64,000 bases of DNA, taken from assembly GCA_002729525.1 (NCBI GenBank), contig PBYI01000034.1, positions 17,854 through 81,853 on the forward strand, read 5' to 3'. The notes beneath the pieces are model-generated. The model saw nothing but the letters and a program-made list of their open reading frames with translations. It ran no database searches and was not told where the DNA came from. Each line of letters begins with the position of its first letter. Position 1 is the first letter of the stretch. The position numbers and the translations under genes are program-made. Shown here piece by piece: positions 5,200 through 43,761 of the stretch. This DNA comes from Nocardioides sp. (GTDB lineage: Bacteria; Actinomycetota; Actinomycetes; Propionibacteriales; Nocardioidaceae).

Positions 5200-8763
<3,564 letters not shown>

Positions 8764-10789: not shown

Positions 10790-11496
10790 GAGGCCGCCTC
10801 GTCGCTACGCCGCCCGCTCGCGGACGTGTCACCGCGCTCGCTGTCCGACGCCGTCGCGCCGTCCACCTCGCTCCCTGCGGGCGACTCGGGCGACTCGTCG
10901 TCCGAGTCGGTCTCGGCAGCGGCGTCGGGCGCGTCGTCCGGCGTACCGGTGTCGCGGGCGCCGTCGAGCCGCACGCCGCGGAAGGCCTGGAGCAGGATGA
11001 GGCCGGCGGCGACGTTGATGCAGATGTCGGCGACGTTGAAGACCGGCCAGCTGGGCAGCATCAGGAAGTCGACGACGTGGCCGTGGAACGCACCGGGATC
11101 GCGCAGCAGGCGGTCGGTGAGGTTGCCGGTGACGCCGGCGAGCAGGAAGCCGAGGGCCAGGGCCCAGCCGGTGCTGCGGACGGATCGGGCGTACCAGAGG
11201 ACGCCGAGGGCGACCACGATCGCCAGGACGGTGAAGACCGGGGTGATGCCGGTGCCGGTGCTGAACGCGGCACCGGGGTTGTAGACCAGTCGCAGCTGCA
11301 GGAGCGACCCGACCAGCGGGACGTCGTCCACGCGATCGGTGAGGTGCTCGACCGCGAGCCACTTGGTGACCTGGTCGACTGCGTAGGCGGTGAGGGCGAC
11401 GACTGCGAGCAGCAGCCGTCGCCTCCCACCGTCCGAGAGGTCCGCCGGGGCGGACGCGGGCGCGTCCGGCGCGGAAGGAGCGGGTACGTCGGGCAT
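10786..11496 (-). CDS. lspA: Lipoprotein signal peptidase II
   Basis: 236 aa with [10 protein letters not shown] and FNVADICI motifs. It has an acidic, low-complexity C-terminal tail. Confidence 0.9.
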
Positions 11497-36626: not shown

Positions 36627-37850
36627 TCAGGACCCCCGGGTCTGGTCCGACCGGGCCAGGAGAGCCGCGGGACGCACCGCGGCGGACCCGAATCGTCGGG
36701 CGGCCCGGTCGACGGCGCGGTCGGCGTCGGACCAGCCCCGGTCCCGCTCCCCGAGCACGCCCTGGCGCTGCACCCGCTCGCGCGGCAGCAGGCCCTCGAC
36801 GCGCACCCCGACCAGCCGGACGCGCGCGCGCTGGAGGCCCAGGCCGTCGTACAGGCCCGCGGCGGCGGCGTAGACGTCACGGGTGACGTCGGTGGGCTCG
36901 GCGAGGGTGCGGCTGCGGGTGATCGTGGTGAAGTCGGAGAAGCGGACGGTGAGGGCGACGGTGCGGCCCGCCACCCCGGCCGTCCGCAGGCGCCCGCACA
37001 CCCGGGCGGTGAGCCGCAGCACCTCGCGCAGCACGTCGTCGCGGTCGTCGGTGTCGCGGGCGAACGTCTCCTGGGCGCCCATCGACCGGTCGGGCTCGCC
37101 GCTGCCGGAGCGCGCGCCGTACCCGAAGACCCCGGCCCCACCCGGCGCGACCTCCTCCCGGTCGGTGCCCCACGCGAGGTGGTGCAGGTGGGTGCCGAGG
37201 TGCTGCCCGAGCGCCTGGCGCAGCAGCGGCAACGGCGTGTGGGCGACGTCGCCGACCGTGCGCAGGCCGAGCCGGTGCAGCCGCTCGCGGGTCTTCTCCC
37301 CCACCCCGTAGAGCTCGCCGACGTCCAACGGGTGCAGGAAGCCCGTCACCTCCTCCGGCGGCACGAGCAGGAGCCCGTCGGGCTTGGCCCTCTTGCTGGC
37401 GAGCTTGGCGACCGACACGGTCCGCGCGATCCCGACCGAGCAGGTGATCCGCTGCTCGTCGTGCACCGCGGCACGCAGCCGGTGCCCGATCTCCTCCGCC
37501 CCGCCGAGCCGCCGAGCGGCGCCCGAGACGTCGAGGAAGGCCTCGTCGGGCGAGACGGCCTCCACCAGCGGCGTGACACCGCGGAACAGGTCCATCACCG
37601 ACGCCGACACCGAGGCGAACAGGTCGTGGTCGGGCTGGAGGACGACGGCGTGCGGGCACAGGCGGCGGGCACGGGCCCCGGTCATCGCCGAGCGGACGCC
37701 GTACTCGCGGGCCGGGTAGTTGGCCGCCAGGACCACGCCGCGGTGCCCGCCGCCCACCACCACCGGGACCTCCTGCAGCTCGGGGCGGTCACGGAGCAGG
37801 ACGGAGGCGTAGAACGCGTCCATGTCGACGTGCAGGATCACCGGCACCAC
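36627..37850 (-). CDS. dinB: DNA polymerase IV (catalytically intact Y-family polymerase)
   Basis: VILHVDMDAFYASV..., SPDEAFLDVSG and SVGIARTVSVAKLASK motifs, with catalytic Asp/Glu present. Only the last ~407 codons of the 1418-aa track ORF are real. Start is GTG at 37850, or 37847/37841. Confidence 0.9.
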   Translation of the reverse strand: MVPVILHVDMDAFYASVLLRDRPELQEVPVVVGGGHRGVVLAANYPAREYGVRSAMTGARARRLCPHAVVLQPDHDLFASVSASVMDLFRGVTPLVEAVSPDEAFLDVSGAARRLGGAEEIGHRLRAAVHDEQRITCSVGIARTVSVAKLASKRAKPDGLLLVPPEEVTGFLHPLDVGELYGVGEKTRERLHRLGLRTVGDVAHTPLPLLRQALGQHLGTHLHHLAWGTDREEVAPGGAGVFGYGARSGSGEPDRSMGAQETFARDTDDRDDVLREVLRLTARVCGRLRTAGVAGRTVALTVRFSDFTTITRSRTLAEPTDVTRDVYAAAAGLYDGLGLQRARVRLVGVRVEGLLPRERVQRQGVLGERDRGWSDADRAVDRAARRFGSAAVRPAALLARSDQTRGS

Positions 37851-37908
37851 ACGCCCTGGGCGATGGCGTCGGCCCCGGCCGGCGAGCCCGTCGGAGGCGG
37901 CGGGCGCA

Positions 37909-38637
37909 TCAGGCCGAGCGGCAGAGCAGGTGCAGCTGTGCGGCGAGCGGGACGTACTCCGGACGCAGCGCCACCGCCCGCTCCAGCTCGACCAGCGAGG
38001 CGGCCGCGCCGGACTCCTGGTCGAGCAGCGAGCCGGGGACCAGGTCGGTGAAGGCCCGGACGGCGCGGACCTCCTCGACGTCGAGGCCGGCCGCGGCGAC
38101 CAGGTCGAGCGCCTCGGCGTGGGTCCAGCGGCGTCCGGTGCGGGTGCCGGCGCCGGCCCCGGGGTCGTCGAGGAGGCGCCGGGCGTCGGCGAAGTGGCCC
38201 GCCATGGCACGGGCGACGACCGCGGCGTGCCGCTGGGCCAGGAGCAGGCTGAGGTGGCCGCCGGCCCGGAGCACGGCGCGGACCGCGTCGAGGCCGCGGG
38301 AGGCGTCGTCCGGCCCGGGCAGGACCTCCAGGACGCCGTGGCACAGCACCAGGTCGGCGCCGTCGGGTCCGACCAGGTCGACCAGGTCGGACACGTCCCC
38401 CTGCTGCCCGTGCACGGCCACGCCGGCCTCGCGGGCACGGCGGTCGAGCGCGGCCAGCGCGTCGGGGCTGGGATCGACGACCCGCACCCGGTGGCCGAGA
38501 CCGGCCAGCCGGACCGCGGAGCCCCCGGTGCCGCCCCCGATGTCGACGACGTCGAGGGGCTCGCCGGTGACCAGCGGGTCGAGGGCGTCCCACACCGCGG
38601 CGGTGCGAGGGTTGTCCCGGGTCGCGGTGCTGGCCAT
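37909..38637 (-). CDS. Class I SAM-dependent methyltransferase
   Basis: MASTATRDN...VVDIGGGTGGSAVRLAGLGHRVRVVDPSPDAL...LVLCHGVLEVL. The ATG at 38637 is preceded by TAGAGT (38645-38650 on the minus strand) with a 7-nt spacer. Confidence 0.8.
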   Translation of the reverse strand: MASTATRDNPRTAAVWDALDPLVTGEPLDVVDIGGGTGGSAVRLAGLGHRVRVVDPSPDALAALDRRAREAGVAVHGQQGDVSDLVDLVGPDGADLVLCHGVLEVLPGPDDASRGLDAVRAVLRAGGHLSLLLAQRHAAVVARAMAGHFADARRLLDDPGAGAGTRTGRRWTHAEALDLVAAAGLDVEEVRAVRAFTDLVPGSLLDQESGAAASLVELERAVALRPEYVPLAAQLHLLCRSA

Positions 38638-38689
38638 GACCTGCACTCTAGGGCGTGCCGACCGCGCCGCGGGGAGGCCGGTCCGGTGC

Positions 38690-41600
38690 TCATCGGCGCT
38701 CCGGTCGCGGGGTGCGCTCCAGCAGGCCGAGCACGTGCGCGGTGCCGAGCGCGCGCCACAGCTCGTGGATGACGGCGAGGTCCCAGGCGCCGGTCGCGCG
38801 CACCGACACGCCCCGGTGGCCGGTGCGCCGCAGGACGCCACGCACCAGCAGCGCGGTGGCGTCGAGCACGGTGCGGCCGCACTGCTCGAGCGCGTCGGCG
38901 AAGAAGGTCACGTCGACCGGTCCGGTGGCGTCGTCGAGCGTCACGAAGACCACCCGCCTCCCCGAGCGCAGGGGCGGGCTCTGGGTGGCGACCTCGACCC
39001 CGGCGACCAGCACCTCGGCACGCGGCCGCTGCGCGAGCAGGTCGCGACTGCGGACCACGTCGAGCGCCTTGAGCAGCCGGGCGTGCTCGTCGACGACGTG
39101 CCGGCTGACGTCGAGCCCGAGTACCTCCAGCTCGGCGGCCGTCGTCTCCGCGGCGGTCAGCTCCGGCAGGCCCGACGGCCCGTCGTGCTGCGCCCCGACC
39201 GGAAGGTCGAGCGTCGGGTGCCCCGCCGCGGTGCGCCCGCGGTCGAGCCCGGCCACCTGGAGCAGCAGGTCGCGCCGGGTCGTGCCACCGCGGCGTCGTA
39301 CGCCGTCGCCGGGCCGCAGGCCGTGCACGGAGTCGAGGCCGCCGGCCAGCACCAGCCGCTCGGCCACCGGCCGGGTGGGTCGGGCCCGCTGCCACAGGTC
39401 GGCCAGCGAGACGTACGGACGGTGGGCCAGCACCCGGTCGAGCTCGTCGTCGGAGATGCCGCGCACGTCGGCGAGCGCGACGCGTACGCCCCAGCCGTCG
39501 TCGACCGGCTCGACGAGGAACTCCCGGCCCGAGGCGTTGACGTCGAGCCCGAGCACCGCCACGTCGAGGCGCCGGGCCTCCTCCAGCAGCAGCCGCTTCG
39601 GGTACATGCCGGGGTCGTGGGTCAGCACCCCGGCCAGGAAGTGCGCCGGCCAGTGGGTCTTCAGCCAGGCGGAGTGGTACGTCGTCAGCGCGAAGGCCGC
39701 GGCGTGCGCCTTGCAGAAGCCGAACGACCCGAACGCCGCGAGGGTCGCCCACACGCCCTCGACCATCTCCTCGGGGTAGCCGCGCGAGCGCACCAACGGG
39801 CACCACCAGCGGCGTACGGCCTCCCGACCCTCCTCGGTAGCCAGCTCGCGGCGCCGCTGGTCGGCCTCGGCGTACGACGTGCCGGACAGCTCGGCGAGGA
39901 TCCGGATGACCTGCTCGTGGTAGACCACGACGCCCCGGGTCTCCGCGAGCACCGGGCGCAGGTCGGGGTGGGCGTACTGTGGGAGCCGCCAGCCCTGCTT
40001 GGCCTCCAGGTAGGGCGTGACCATGTCGCTCTGCACCGGTCCGGGCCGGAACAGCGAGATGTCGGCCACCACGTCGTCGAGGTCCTCGATGCCGGACCGC
40101 CCGACGAGCTCGCGCTGTCCCGGCGACTCCAGCTGGAAGACGCCGAGCGTCCGCGCGCTGCTGATGAGGGCGTACGTCGCGGGGTCGTCGAGCGGCACCT
40201 GGGTGCGGTCGTCGAGGTCGATCGCGGTGCCGGTGGTGCGGCGCACCTCGGTGACCGCGTGCGCCATCGCCGACTGCATCCGGATGCCGAGCAGGTCGAG
40301 CTTGAGCAGGCCGAGGTGCTCGACGTCGTCCTTGTCGAACTGGCTCATCGGGTAGCCCGCGGCGCTGCGTTCGACCGGGGTGCGGTCGAGGAGCGTGGCG
40401 TCGGACAGCAGCACCCCGCACGGGTGGACGGAGACGTGGCGCGGCAGGCCGTCGAGCCGCTCGGTGAGGGCGAGCAGGACCTGCAGCCGCTGCTCGTCGA
40501 CACCGAGCGCGCGCAGCTCCGGGAGGGAGCCGAGCACCGCCCGGGCGTCGCGGGCCCGCACCCGCGGGAAGCCCTTCGCGAGCGCGTCGACCTCCCCGAC
40601 CGGCAGTCCGAACGCACCGCCGACGGCGCGGACGGCGTGGCGCACCCGGTAGGTGTCGGTCATCGAGACGCACACGCACCGGTCGGCGCCGAAGTGCGCG
40701 AGCACGGCGTCGTAGACCTCGTCGCGGCGGGCCGACTCGACGTCGAGGTCGATGTCGGGCAGGGCCCTGCGCCGCGGCGACAGGAACCGCTCGACGAGCA
40801 GCCCGTGCCGCACCGGGTCGACCCCGGAGATGCCGAGGAGGTAGGTGAGGATGCTGCCGGCGCCCGAACCGCGGGCAGCGCACCGCACGCCGAGCGAGCG
40901 GACCAGGTCGGTGACGTCGGCGACGGCCAGGAAGTACGCCGCGCAGCCGAGGTCGCGCACCAGGACCAGCTCGTCGTCGAGCCGCTTCCAGACGACCTGA
41001 CGGGGCGCCGACCCGTAGCGGTCACCGACCGCGGCCTCGCACCGGGCGCGCAGCACGGCGTCGGCCGAGCCGACCACCGGGTCGTGCTCGGGGACGTGCA
41101 TCTCGCCCAGGCCCAGGTCGGCCCGCGGGTCGAGCACGCAGCGCTCGGCGAGGTCGCGGGTCGCGGCGAGCAGTCCGGCGGCCTCGGCGCCGGCGACCTC
41201 CGCCGCGACCTCCGTCATCGCCGCGCTCGACTTCAGGTGCGCCTCGGCATTGCGGCGCTCCAGGTGGCGCCGGTGCAGCACCACGAGCCGGCGGTCGGCG
41301 TCGAGCACGTCGGCGACCGCGGCGTCGGAGCGCCCGGCGTAGCGCACGGCGTTGGTGAGCACGGCGGTGAGGCCGAGGGCCGCGGCCAGCGCGAGGGTGC
41401 GCCGCGCGTGCGGCACCGAGCCCGACCCCCACGACCCGTCGGCGTCGACCGGCGCGCGGTGCGAGACCACCTCGACGCGGAGCCGCCCGGCCGGCACGAG
41501 CGCCCGCCAGGCGTCGACCTCCGCTCGCGCCTGGTCGTCACGCCGCGCCCGGACGGCCGGTCCGAGGACGGAGTCGGGCCCGAGGAGCACCACCAGGGCG

Positions 41601-42094
41601 CCGCCGGCGAGCGCGGCCAGCGCGGCCGCGGGCGGGTCGGCCAGGTCGAGGGCGGGCGTGGCCCGGTCGCCGGTCGTCCGGACGGCCGAGACCAGCCGGC
41701 ACAGGGCCGCCCACCCGGCCCGTCCCCCGCCGGGGCCGTCGGACGTGGCGAGGACGGTCACCCGGGGCAGCCCACCCGCCTCGAGCGGGAGATCGCGGAA
41801 GGCGCCACCCCGGGCGGGTGCCGGCCGGCGCCGCTGCGCCCGCGACGGAGCCCGGGGCACCCGACCGTCGGGCAGCGGGCGGTAGGCCAGACGGACCCCC
41901 AGCACCGGACGCACACCGGCCGCCTCGCACGCCCGGGCGAACCGCACCGCGCCGTAGGTGCCGTCGCGGTCGGTGAGCGCCAGGACGTCGAGCCCGAGGT
42001 CCGCCGCCCGACCGACCAGGGCCTCGGGGTGCGACACGCCGTACCGCATCGACCAGCCCGAGCTCACGTGCAGGTGCGGGAAGGCGGGCGGCAC
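38690..42094 (-). CDS. dnaE2: Error-prone DNA polymerase DnaE2 (ImuC)
   Basis: 1134 aa. N-terminus VPPAFPHLHVSSGWSMRYGVSHPEALVGRAADLGLDVLALTDRDG (degenerate PHP domain) with a Pol III alpha core (GSGAGSILTYLLGISGVDP, PDIDLDVE). The GTG at 42094 has a GAAGGAG Shine-Dalgarno. Confidence 0.93.
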   Translation of the reverse strand: MPPAFPHLHVSSGWSMRYGVSHPEALVGRAADLGLDVLALTDRDGTYGAVRFARACEAAGVRPVLGVRLAYRPLPDGRVPRAPSRAQRRRPAPARGGAFRDLPLEAGGLPRVTVLATSDGPGGGRAGWAALCRLVSAVRTTGDRATPALDLADPPAAALAALAGGALVVLLGPDSVLGPAVRARRDDQARAEVDAWRALVPAGRLRVEVVSHRAPVDADGSWGSGSVPHARRTLALAAALGLTAVLTNAVRYAGRSDAAVADVLDADRRLVVLHRRHLERRNAEAHLKSSAAMTEVAAEVAGAEAAGLLAATRDLAERCVLDPRADLGLGEMHVPEHDPVVGSADAVLRARCEAAVGDRYGSAPRQVVWKRLDDELVLVRDLGCAAYFLAVADVTDLVRSLGVRCAARGSGAGSILTYLLGISGVDPVRHGLLVERFLSPRRRALPDIDLDVESARRDEVYDAVLAHFGADRCVCVSMTDTYRVRHAVRAVGGAFGLPVGEVDALAKGFPRVRARDARAVLGSLPELRALGVDEQRLQVLLALTERLDGLPRHVSVHPCGVLLSDATLLDRTPVERSAAGYPMSQFDKDDVEHLGLLKLDLLGIRMQSAMAHAVTEVRRTTGTAIDLDDRTQVPLDDPATYALISSARTLGVFQLESPGQRELVGRSGIEDLDDVVADISLFRPGPVQSDMVTPYLEAKQGWRLPQYAHPDLRPVLAETRGVVVYHEQVIRILAELSGTSYAEADQRRRELATEEGREAVRRWWCPLVRSRGYPEEMVEGVWATLAAFGSFGFCKAHAAAFALTTYHSAWLKTHWPAHFLAGVLTHDPGMYPKRLLLEEARRLDVAVLGLDVNASGREFLVEPVDDGWGVRVALADVRGISDDELDRVLAHRPYVSLADLWQRARPTRPVAERLVLAGGLDSVHGLRPGDGVRRRGGTTRRDLLLQVAGLDRGRTAAGHPTLDLPVGAQHDGPSGLPELTAAETTAAELEVLGLDVSRHVVDEHARLLKALDVVRSRDLLAQRPRAEVLVAGVEVATQSPPLRSGRRVVFVTLDDATGPVDVTFFADALEQCGRTVLDATALLVRGVLRRTGHRGVSVRATGAWDLAVIHELWRALGTAHVLGLLERTPRPERR

Positions 42095-42180
42095 GAGGGC
42101 GCTCCTTCGGACGGCGGGTGAGCAGGCCGGGCGTCCGGATCGGGGACGGGCGGGTGCTGGCGGGGTGCTGGCGGGTGCGG

Positions 42181-42642
42181 TCAGGACACGTGGCGCGCCA
42201 GCCGCTCCGGCGCGGCGGCGTGCTCGACGAGGCCGAGGCGCCGCTCGACGACCGCGAGGAACCGGTCGGCGTCGCGGACCAGGTCGTCGGCCTCCCGCTC
42301 GCTGACCGCCGTGGTGGACCCGGCTTCCGCGGCGGCCCGCTTGCCGGCACCGGCGGCGAAGAACGACGCCCACTCCGCCAGCTCGGGGGCGACCTCGGCG
42401 AGCAGCACCCAGGCGTTGGTCTGGCGCCGTCCGCGCACGGGAGCCGGACGGGCACGCGCCGCGAGCAGGGCGGCGGCGGCCCGCAGCGCGGCGACGTGCG
42501 CGCAGGCGTAGCGCGTCGGCACATCGGTGGCGGCGACGGCCTCGGCCAGCGACTCCGCCGCCCGCCCGAGGTAGGAGTGTGTGGTGGCGGGGAGGCTGCA
42601 GGGACCGGCGAGGTCGTCGGCGCGGAAGAGGGGCTCGGTCAT
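42181..42642 (-). CDS. Small all-alpha protein, recalled as the SAV_6107-type HEPN-domain family
   Basis: MTEPLFRADD...RYACAHVAALRAAAALLAARARP...NAWVLLAEVAPELAEWASFFAAGAGKRAAAEAG...EREADDLVRDADRFL. An AGGAG Shine-Dalgarno precedes the ATG at 42642. The family name is from memory. Confidence 0.6.
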   Translation of the reverse strand: MTEPLFRADDLAGPCSLPATTHSYLGRAAESLAEAVAATDVPTRYACAHVAALRAAAALLAARARPAPVRGRRQTNAWVLLAEVAPELAEWASFFAAGAGKRAAAEAGSTTAVSEREADDLVRDADRFLAVVERRLGLVEHAAAPERLARHVS

Positions 42643-42703
42643 CGGGGTCTCCTGGGGTCGGAGGTCGGGCTCGCTGGGTGGGAGGGACGTCGGCCGCGAG
42701 GCG

Positions 42704-43111
42704 TCAGTCGTGGCAGGCCTCGAGGACCCAGTGGCCCTCGGCGGGGTCGAGCACGAGGTCGAACACGCCCTCGCCGAGCGCGCCACCGAGCGCACCGCGG
42801 CCGGCCCGGACCCGCCAGACCTCCCGCTCGGCGAGCAGGTCGGGCAGCTCGGGAAGGTCGGGAAGGTCGGGAAGGTCGGGAACGCCCGGCCGGTCGGGGA
42901 GGGCCCGCACGTCGTCAGCGACCGAGGACCCGCCGCCGACGGCGGCCGCACTGAGGGCGGGCGCCACCGCGTGCTCCCACCAGGCGCCGGTCTCCACCCA
43001 GCGCGCGACGACCTCGCGCACCGACCACAGCCGCTCGCGCCACACGAAGTGCGCCGGCTCGCCGGCCGCGCCGTCGCGCCGGACCTGCACCTGCTCGTCG
43101 TACCTGCGCAC
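42704..43111 (-). CDS. DUF6504-like small protein with an internal PDL repeat
   Basis: ...AGEPAHFVWRERLWSVREVVARWVETGAWWEH...EREVWRVRAG...GVFDLVLDPAEGHWVLEACHD. The GTG at 43111 has a GGGAGG Shine-Dalgarno. The longest ORF start is 43141. The family name is from memory. Confidence 0.55.
   Translation of the reverse strand: MRRYDEQVQVRRDGAAGEPAHFVWRERLWSVREVVARWVETGAWWEHAVAPALSAAAVGGGSSVADDVRALPDRPGVPDLPDLPDLPELPDLLAEREVWRVRAGRGALGGALGEGVFDLVLDPAEGHWVLEACHD
42842..42886. repeat. In-frame 9-bp tandem repeat (GGGAAGGTC x3 perfect, flanked by two degenerate units) encoding (PDL)n
   Basis: Direct reading: 42851-42859, 42860-42868 and 42869-42877 are identical. Confidence 0.85.
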
Positions 43112-43203
43112 CTGCTGCCTCCCGGAGCCGTCGGGTCCCACCGCGTCGCGGTGGTCGCCAGTCCCGACGGGACGGGGTCGAGGCGCCCCGCCGAGTCCGG
43201 CGT

Positions 43204-43219
43204 TCGAACACGTGTTCGA
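43204..43219. promoter_or_regulatory. Perfect actinobacterial LexA SOS box TCGAAC-ACGT-GTTCGA
   Basis: Exact 16-bp palindrome matching the mycobacterial/actinobacterial consensus TCGAAC-N4-GTTCGA. On the sense strand it lies 8 nt downstream of a TTGACG-N19-TACCTT promoter-like pair, upstream of DUF6504/HEPN/dnaE2. Confidence 0.8.
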
Positions 43220-43284
43220 ACGACTCGAAGGTACACCGCCTCACCGGTACGCCGTCAAGGGCGCACCGGGCGGGTCGGACGGGG

Positions 43285-43761
43285 TCAGGCGACCGGCGTG
43301 CCCTCGTCGGCACCGGAGCGCGGACGCCGCTTCCACGCCGTGACGTGGCAGGTCGTGCCGGGCCGGTAGAGCGCGACCAGGAGCGCGGCGTCGAGCAGCC
43401 AGAAGACGACCCCGAGGGCGACGAACGGCGCCGGCGGCGAGACCCGCAGCGCGGAGGCCACCACCACGGCGGAGAGCACACCGGCCGCGGCGATGCAGTG
43501 CCGCGCCCAGTTGTGCCCGCCGCGCAGGAAGGTCACCAGCACGAGCAGCAGCACCGACACCACCAGGCACAGCACCACCGCGACGGGCAGGTAGGAGGCC
43601 GGCACCCGGGTGTCGTCGGCCGAGAGGCCCTCGCCACCCGTCCACGCCTCCACGAGCTCGGCGTCGAAGACGACCGCCAGCGCGGTGACGACGACCGCCA
43701 GCAGCACCATGACCAGGACCAGGCGGACCGCCCAGGTGACCGAGCGGGGTCTGTCGACCAT
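43285..43761 (-). CDS. Four-TM membrane protein of unknown function
   Basis: MVDRPRSVTWAVRLVLVMVLLAVVV... The ATG at 43761 has a GGAGGAGGAG Shine-Dalgarno 8 nt upstream. Confidence 0.6.
   Translation of the reverse strand: MVDRPRSVTWAVRLVLVMVLLAVVVTALAVVFDAELVEAWTGGEGLSADDTRVPASYLPVAVVLCLVVSVLLLVLVTFLRGGHNWARHCIAAAGVLSAVVVASALRVSPPAPFVALGVVFWLLDAALLVALYRPGTTCHVTAWKRRPRSGADEGTPVA

Follow-up and report, generated by a model that had tools for sequence, protein, structure and literature searches.

A probable LexA-controlled DnaE2B-PolY-ImuB-C mutagenesis cassette in Nocardioides, with associated HEPN and methyltransferase genes

Gene order, SOS box and relatives of the cassette

We analyzed a stretch of 64,000 nucleotides (nt; hereafter the window, with a G+C content of approximately 75%) from Nocardioides sp. 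GCA_002729525.1, contig PBYI01000034.1, focusing on a cassette of five co-oriented genes on its minus strand. In the direction of transcription, these encode a DUF6504 protein, a HEPN_SAV_6107 protein, the polymerase DnaE2, an S-adenosylmethionine (SAM)-dependent methyltransferase and a Y-family polymerase (PolY), with intergenic gaps of 61, 86, 52 and 58 nt (Table 1). An initial annotation had described five co-oriented minus-strand genes separated by 52-86 nt; its coordinates and family assignments held throughout, including those of the two small open reading frames (ORFs), both of which are recognized by Pfam profile models at the E values given in Table 1. Overall, the region is likely to be a LexA-repressed translesion/mutagenesis cassette belonging to the 'DnaE2B-PolY-ImuB-C(-RecA)' type of actinobacteria. 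This system type was published in February 2026 in Nucleic Acids Research (NAR; PMC12926913), so that its core is already known and the window adds nothing new there. What is new is modest, namely the association with HEPN and methyltransferase genes, the two-promoter architecture, and the assignment of DUF6504 as standalone ImuB C-terminal domain (ImuB-C).

The cassette is headed by the LexA (SOS) box TCGAACACGTGTTCGA, which lies 92 nt upstream of the GTG start codon of the first gene and matches in sequence the TCGAAC-N4-GTTCGA operator of the actinobacterial LexA type. In 76 of 77 related loci, the DUF6504 gene has the same perfect operator ahead of it, and the remaining locus carries one mismatch. 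The earlier claim that a perfect SOS box heads the first gene is thereby confirmed, and that of a dnaE2 cassette under SOS control is supported.

Relatives were collected by scanning a DUF6504 alignment against one genome per prokaryotic species, which yielded 80 loci, and gene order was counted by tblastn of the five window proteins in the 61 loci extending far enough. Most of the named loci among the 80 belong to Nocardioides, Nocardioidaceae or Propionibacteriales, with Nocardioidaceae as the closest relatives; records of the identical DUF6504 protein come from metagenome assemblies alone, among them ENA ERZ27288230. The order DUF6504-HEPN-DnaE2-methyltransferase-DinB was found in 58 loci, the other three lacking HEPN only, and methyltransferase and DinB genes are present in all 61. 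Such recurrence of gene order and LexA box (58/61 and 76/77 loci, respectively) is strongly non-random, far beyond chance. Moreover, a genome of Dermatophilaceae (order Micrococcales) holds the same five genes in the same chromosomal place, between a PASTA-kinase/Rv2175c/polyprenyl-synthase/MTHFR block on one side and DUF3040-TgpA on the other, near the cell-division cluster. The five-gene order shared by Nocardioidaceae and Dermatophilaceae at one site indicates that the cassette is old and vertically inherited, and not a mobile island.

Table 1. Positions of the cassette genes and of associated sequence elements in the window
Feature	Position	Strand	Basis or remark
LexA (SOS) box	43204-43219		Sole zero-mismatch match in the 64-kb window
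Standalone ImuB-C protein, 135 amino acids (aa)	42704-43111	-	Pfam DUF6504/PF20114, E 3.5e-16
Tandem repeat of a 9-nt unit (5.1 copies) coding for (P-D-L)n in the imuB-C linker	42837-42882	-	Tandem Repeats Finder
HEPN_SAV_6107 protein, 153 aa, without Rx4-6H	42181-42642	-	PF18726, E 1.5e-34
DnaE2, probably of the 'B' type, 1134 aa	38690-42094	-	PHP, DNA_pol3_alpha, finger, HHH_6 and OB domains
TAGAGT, -10-like hexamer, 7 nt 5' of the methyltransferase ATG	38645-38650	-	Sequence inspection
Class-I SAM-dependent methyltransferase, 242 aa	37909-38637	-	Methyltransf_25/12/11 domains
Y-family polymerase (DinB/PolY-core type), 407 aa	36627-37850	-	IMS and IMS_C; Pol IV NCBIfam models
QGVLGE, putative beta-clamp-motif-like stretch near the PolY C-terminus	36747-36764	-	Kept in 59 orthologues
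RecA-NT-like motif at the PolY C-terminus	36657-36734	-	Conserved in 59 orthologues; aligns with Tessaracoccus PolY

ImuB-C, PolY and DnaE2 of the cassette

We then turned to the first gene of the cassette. Judged by sequence, the DUF6504 gene is a standalone ImuB-C, orthologous to the published actinobacterial ImuB-C proteins. The window protein matches the published ImuB-C of Nocardioides euryhalodurans (QBR94233) with a BLASTP E value of 1e-23, and Pfam DUF6504 (PF20114) in turn matches QBR94233 as well as two further proteins listed as ImuB-C, Tessaracoccus VEP41449 and QFG68257 (E 1e-13 to 1e-16). Moreover, only the HEPN gene separates the DUF6504 gene from dnaE2, and the motif pattern W..ETGaWW ... 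EReVWRVeA..G...GVFDL..D...G.W.L resembles the ImuB-C pattern by eye. The initial annotation had stated that no imuB-like ORF is adjacent, which these matches contradict. Its proposal that the two small proteins are tied to the mutasome was judged right, while its view of both as undescribed stands for the HEPN protein in this context but falls for the DUF6504 protein, an orthologue of published ImuB-C proteins.

The AlphaFold 2 (AF2) model of the DUF6504 protein (predicted local distance difference test, pLDDT, 80) has six long beta strands in two beta-rich halves, with a disordered linker between them. A Foldseek search with the model returned no neighbour in the PDB, and sequence searches of the PDB returned no ImuB or ImuB-C structure. 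The ImuB-C domain and its standalone forms with DnaE2 were defined by Aravind et al. (PMC3765255), and Timinskas and Venclovas proposed ImuB-C as a DnaE2-binding module (PMC6511836). More recently, ImuB-C was described as a beta-barrel of novel fold (PMC12926913), with which an all-beta model lacking a PDB neighbour agrees. In the DUF6504 family alignment it is the linker that is not conserved, and its length and sequence vary strongly among orthologues; as the tandem repeat of Table 1 lies within it, this may be a slippage-prone site. An exhaustive profile search with DUF6504 gave 875 representatives, nearly all of them short standalone proteins. Long matches were considered as gene fusions, but they contain only partial DUF6504 and, in one case, partial HEPN, and thus look like artefacts of gene calling or frameshifts; they were excluded from Rosetta-stone evidence.

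The Y-family polymerase retains the catalytic D-x-D and D-E residues within VDMDAFYASV and SPDEAFLDV, as the initial annotation had pointed out in calling it DinB-like and not a dead ImuB. Near its C-terminus, the stretch rQlvLGe is conserved among 59 orthologues (QGVLGE in the window), which we take to resemble the clamp-binding motif QLVLGL of E. coli DinB. It is followed by GW..AdrAvDrA..RFG..AVrPAsLl, the RecA-NT-like motif (WSDADRAVDRAARRFGSAAVRPAALL in the window), after which the protein ends, ImuB-C being encoded by a separate gene. Over its full length, C-terminal motif included, the protein shares 53% identity with the published system's PolY from Tessaracoccus, and the PolYs of that system carry a RecA-NT motif (PMC12926913). 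The window PolY is thus apparently active, of the DinB type, and equipped with a putative RecA-NT motif. With ImuB-C as its own gene and clamp-like and RecA-NT-like motifs on PolY, the two proteins together would amount to a split ImuB. As a side observation, one five-gene cassette (L087, 13161-14300) has an apparently decayed Y-family gene, with a called product of 92 aa and fragmented tblastn matches.

As for the C-family polymerase, the best NCBIfam model for the cassette DnaE is 'error-prone DNA polymerase' at 622 bits, which is below that model's cut-off, followed by 585 bits for the DnaE1 model. Identity amounts to 41% with Arthrobacter DnaE2B (over the N-terminal 430 aa) and 47% with a Streptomyces plasmid DnaE2, as opposed to 31% with Burkholderia DnaE2A and 28% with the window's own DnaE1. 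These values, which are pairwise identities only, favour a placement nearer DnaE2B than DnaE2A or DnaE1. Most DnaE2 proteins have been described as carrying a C-terminal motif of the SRDF[H/R] type, which was not found in the cassette DnaE2. A bona fide replicative DnaE1 (5200-8763, minus strand; NF004226, 1512 bits, above the equivalog cut-off) lies approximately 30 kb from the cassette, so that the cassette DnaE is a second copy. The G+C content of the DnaE1 gene is 65-70%, against approximately 75% in its flanks.

DnaE2 proteins have been split into groups A, B and X, and genomes with DnaE2B have been reported to lack ImuA and ImuB (PMC12926913). In the DnaE2B-PolY-ImuB-C-RecA system of Nocardioides euryhalodurans, Tessaracoccus lapidicaptus and Janibacter indicus, the same three genes occur as in the window; they are orthologous, come from the same actinobacterial orders, and likewise include an active-type PolY with RecA-NT-like motif next to a standalone ImuB-C. 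In supplement file 5 of that work, the AlphaFold 3 (AF3) predictions for Nocardioides, Tessaracoccus and Janibacter carry the annotation 'good tetramer complex modeled', and a two-gene DnaE2B-ImuBC form is described in Arthrobacter (PMC12926913). The published account, however, names only DnaE2, PolY, ImuB-C and RecA, to which the window adds the HEPN protein, the methyltransferase, the LexA box and the internal promoter; neither the word HEPN nor the word methyltransferase occurs in its text or supplements. The published Janibacter accessions (APH01277/79/81) skip two genes, one lying between ImuB-C and DnaE2 and the other between DnaE2 and PolY; those of Nocardioides (QBR90836/38) skip one, between DnaE2 and PolY. 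These accession gaps suggest that the published examples contain unreported HEPN and methyltransferase genes.

Transcription units, the HEPN gene and the methyltransferase gene

A TANNNT element, mostly TAGGGT or TAGAGT, stands 5-9 nt (mostly 7) before the methyltransferase start codon in 54 of 61 loci, and it was found before none of the other starts (DinB, 0/62; HEPN, 0/56; DnaE2, 0/75; DUF6504, 0/80). This distribution supports a leaderless internal promoter and two units, in keeping with the earlier claim of a TAGAGT-N7-ATG element at the methyltransferase gene and a probable division of the cassette in two. Natural rearrangements point to the same arrangement. In locus L094, dnaE2 and the methyltransferase gene are kept apart by genes for a TetR protein and an epimerase; in nine cases, insertion of a gene between HEPN and dnaE2 goes with an additional perfect LexA box ahead of dnaE2; and in locus L088, two opposite-strand genes part imuB-C-HEPN from dnaE2-polY, with a perfect box on each unit. 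Hence, the cassette probably consists of two predicted transcription units, an inducible one with imuB-C, HEPN and dnaE2, and a methyltransferase-polY unit that is probably constitutive.

Scans of the region for sigma-70 and terminator consensus sequences gave no match, which is uninformative at 75% GC. A -35/-10 pair, TTGACG-N19-TACCTT, was seen by eye just 5' of the LexA box; it was not counted among the elements of the cassette because its spacing is poor. Directly upstream of the box, a 158-aa ORF (43285-43761, minus strand; also at 9351-9827 in L083) ends approximately 70 nt before it; this ORF has no Pfam match, and its translation looks hydrophobic, like that of a membrane protein. Regarding genes located between HEPN and dnaE2, L024 (10866-12074) encodes a 402-aa secreted protein, endonuclease-I-like by motifs and without an NCBIfam match, and inserts of approximately 1.4 kb, the size seen in L024, occupy the same gap in L005, L040, L043 and L080. 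In L037, the opposite strand at approximately 10800-11370 encodes a probable beta-carbonic anhydrase, judged from motifs only, and the insert in L039, at about the same coordinates, equals it in size.

The HEPN protein scores 118.8 bits against PF18726, for a gathering cut-off of 27.2, and its AF2 model (pLDDT 80) finds its best PDB matches in HEPN proteins (2hsb, 1wol, 4nqf and 3o10, the sacsin HEPN domain). The Rx4-6H RNase motif is absent from an alignment of 25 HEPN orthologues. It is therefore a strong member of the HEPN_SAV_6107 family, 'HEPN-M (SAV_6107)' of Anantharaman et al. 2013, sharing with it the helical bundle, the lack of Rx4-6H and the actinobacterial origin. That family was listed without any gene-context association (PMC3710099), whereas here the gene usually has imuB-C and dnaE2 on either side and a LexA box ahead. 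Exact-protein look-ups placed a HEPN gene in the same position in the distant variants L084/85, L086, L087, L088, L089, L090 and L094, where it often overlaps its neighbours; the one in L086 is a 214-aa form missed by precomputed Pfam matches and recovered by hhalign (99.9%). Measured against the respective window protein, median identity is highest for HEPN (74%), followed by DinB (69%), DnaE2 (60%), the methyltransferase (59%) and ImuB-C (44%). In the literature searched, no paper names both HEPN and dnaE2.

The Streptomyces context of SAV_6107, the type protein of the HEPN family, was also sought. By tblastn, HEPN and DUF6504 found no match in a plasmid collection in which actinobacterial chromosomes are mis-filed as well; a metF-anchored search gave plasmid paralogues only; and a protein search with a divergent HEPN as query gave names from Kineosporiales and Micrococcales, with none from Streptomyces.

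The nearest solved relatives of the methyltransferase are the CmoM-type enzymes 8joz and 4htf (E approximately 3e-12), and an NCBIfam scan of the protein gave nothing above cut-off. Its gene sits between dnaE2 and polY in all 61 long loci; it is missing from four-gene distant variants, in which polY directly follows dnaE2. Tentatively, this protein may be seen as a second partner of the Y-family polymerase that has so far gone unrecognised.

A candidate two-polymerase complex and its alternatives

Based on our and others' results, the following course of events can be proposed. Upon DNA damage, RecA-stimulated cleavage of LexA would free the box and derepress imuB-C, HEPN and dnaE2, while the methyltransferase and PolY would be made, probably constitutively, from their own leaderless-type promoter and raised by read-through. 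The small beta-barrel ImuB-C is predicted, in the published AF3 models, to dock on DnaE2's PHP domain, and the active PolY would bring the clamp- and RecA-binding motifs found on ImuB in the canonical system, with RecA proposed in place of ImuA'. The outcome would be a clamp-tethered, RecA-associated complex of two polymerases able to bypass lesions. The non-catalytic HEPN protein would act as an SOS-co-regulated accessory or regulator of the complex, not as a core subunit.

Several observations weigh against this proposal or against parts of it. The literature on the DnaE2B-PolY-ImuB-C type contains no experimental study, and deletion of dnaE2 in Streptomyces coelicolor, which has a related DnaE2B and an inactive PolY, gave no ultraviolet (UV) or mutagenesis phenotype (PMC3273824), this being the main caution against assuming that the cassette is mutagenic. 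Furthermore, Pfam DUF6504 matches neither a Burkholderia plasmid ImuB, nor its C-terminal 85 aa, nor ImuB-C proteins of the DnaE2X type, and hhalign comparisons of the DUF6504 alignment with Burkholderia ImuB and with a three-sequence canonical ImuB-C alignment found the right register at a non-significant level. As our own profile comparisons were not significant, the deeper homology between DUF6504 and ImuB rests on the published PSI-BLAST/HHpred classification. An ImuA-, ImuB- or RecA-like ORF was found nowhere in the 64-kb window, to which this check was confined, and none of the five cassette genes has a RecA-like domain. Finally, HEPN is missing from the cassettes L012, L026, L074 and L091 and, judging from consecutive accession numbers, from Tessaracoccus; conversely, solitary HEPN genes occur between MTHFR and bldD-pyrR-pyrB-carAB in L092 (7001-7483) and L093 (6509-7141), DUF6504, DnaE2 and PolY all being absent within 7 kb. 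Since HEPN is missing from some cassettes and alone elsewhere, its tie to the complex is not obligatory, and as the solitary gene of L093 has a one-mismatch LexA box (GCGAACCTATGTTCGA) 129 nt upstream, the protein may have an SOS role apart from the mutasome.

The lack of a significant link to proteobacterial ImuB, the absence of ImuA and ImuB from the window, and the fact that Pfam labels one of the two small proteins just a DUF would all suit a reading in which DUF6504 and HEPN, both uncharacterised and without relation to ImuA/ImuB, now fill the accessory role in an imuB-less dnaE2 cassette. We regard this as very unlikely, as the DUF6504 protein is orthologous (E 1e-23) to an ImuB-C classed by the Venclovas laboratory and modelled with DnaE2B, PolY and RecA, three published actinobacterial ImuB-C proteins are DUF6504 members, the motif pattern of DUF6504 agrees by eye with that of ImuB-C, and PolY bears the clamp-like and RecA-NT-like motifs of the ImuB type. 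It has also to be considered that clustering may reflect co-regulation only, with DnaE2, PolY, the methyltransferase and the small proteins acting independently in the SOS response and forming no complex. The Streptomyces deletion without phenotype and the roles that dinB2 has of its own there (PMC3273824) fit this idea, as do the conserved promoter of the methyltransferase-polY pair and its separation from dnaE2 by inserted genes in L094. Nevertheless, it appears distinctly improbable, given that ImuB-C and DnaE2 co-occur throughout, even in the two-gene form of Arthrobacter, that PolY keeps ImuB-like interaction motifs, and that two actinobacterial orders have kept the gene order at a single chromosomal site. 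RNase toxins belonging to two-gene modules are common among HEPN proteins (PMC3710099), which raises the question of whether DUF6504-HEPN is a toxin-antitoxin or defence module located upstream of dnaE2 by chance. This is hardly credible for a protein without Rx4-6H from a family listed as lacking it (PMC3710099), with no MNT partner and with ImuB-C as its partner gene, at a vertically inherited, non-mobile site near the cell-division cluster region with conserved LexA control.

The role of HEPN is less clear-cut. In 58 of 61 loci, and in six of seven distinct distant contexts reached via DUF6504, the gene has imuB-C on one side and dnaE2 on the other; it overlaps or abuts its neighbours in several lineages, remains with imuB-C behind the LexA box in L088 where dnaE2-polY is separated, and its product shows the highest conservation in the cassette (median identity 74% versus 44-69%). 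All this would be expected of a stoichiometric core subunit of the mutasome, acting either as a functional replacement of ImuA' or as a small regulatory subunit of the UmuD'/YolD type. We consider such a core role unlikely, if far from implausible, in view of the cassettes that lack HEPN, of the solitary genes in L092 and L093, and of the published AF3 tetramers, judged good in its absence. Likewise, a true subunit standing in for ImuA' seems a rather doubtful assignment. It is a tentative possibility that HEPN is an unrecognised, SOS-regulated mutasome component, a non-catalytic adaptor or gatekeeper on ImuB-C, DnaE2 or RecA that functionally replaces ImuA' or UmuD'; if true, it would set the timing of error-prone polymerase access in an actinobacterial mutasome without ImuA. 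Most likely, as far as sequence and gene context can tell, HEPN is an SOS-co-regulated, non-catalytic accessory or regulator, usually found with imuB-C-dnaE2, and not a core subunit.

These results matter because a large share of DnaE2 genes sit in genomes without ImuA/ImuB. The SOS operator, the two-promoter architecture, and the HEPN and methyltransferase genes, both left out of current complex models, are directly testable points, and Pfam DUF6504 gains a name, that of standalone ImuB-C.

Compared with the mycobacterial ImuA'-ImuB-DnaE2 system, the cassette shares predicted SOS inducibility, DnaE2, and an organiser of Y-family fold with clamp motif, RecA-NT and ImuB-C. In the window, however, ImuB is divided between two genes, with the catalytic residues of the Y-family part intact, ImuA' is lacking, and DnaE2 is probably of the B group instead of the A group. 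Two traits of the canonical mutasome, a dead Y-family ImuB fused to ImuB-C and a RecA-fold ImuA or ImuA' in the cassette, are accordingly not seen. With E. coli Pol V (UmuD'2C-RecA) and Bacillus YqjW-YqjX, the cassette has in common a Y-family polymerase of an SOS-induced system, a RecA-NT-type motif and small accessory subunits; these subunits are of another fold in the window, there is no autoproteolytic UmuD, and a C-family polymerase is part of the module.

The dnaE2-dinB2 pair of Streptomyces (SCO1739-SCO1738; vnz_06640-06635) resembles the window in having a LexA-controlled DnaE2B followed by a Y-family gene, and it is induced by UV and mitomycin C (MMC) (PMC3273824, PMC9380542). It differs in the 4-bp overlap of its two genes, in an SOS box placed immediately before dnaE2, in a PolY reported to be inactive, and in that no ImuB-C has been reported. 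A plasmid copy in Streptomyces sp. NBC_01707 (L002, 3986-8433) holds no DUF6504, HEPN or methyltransferase gene, and its dnaE2 overlaps a 333-aa Y-family remnant without most of the IMS domain. Altogether, at least 150 Streptomyces plasmid records matched the DnaE2 query.

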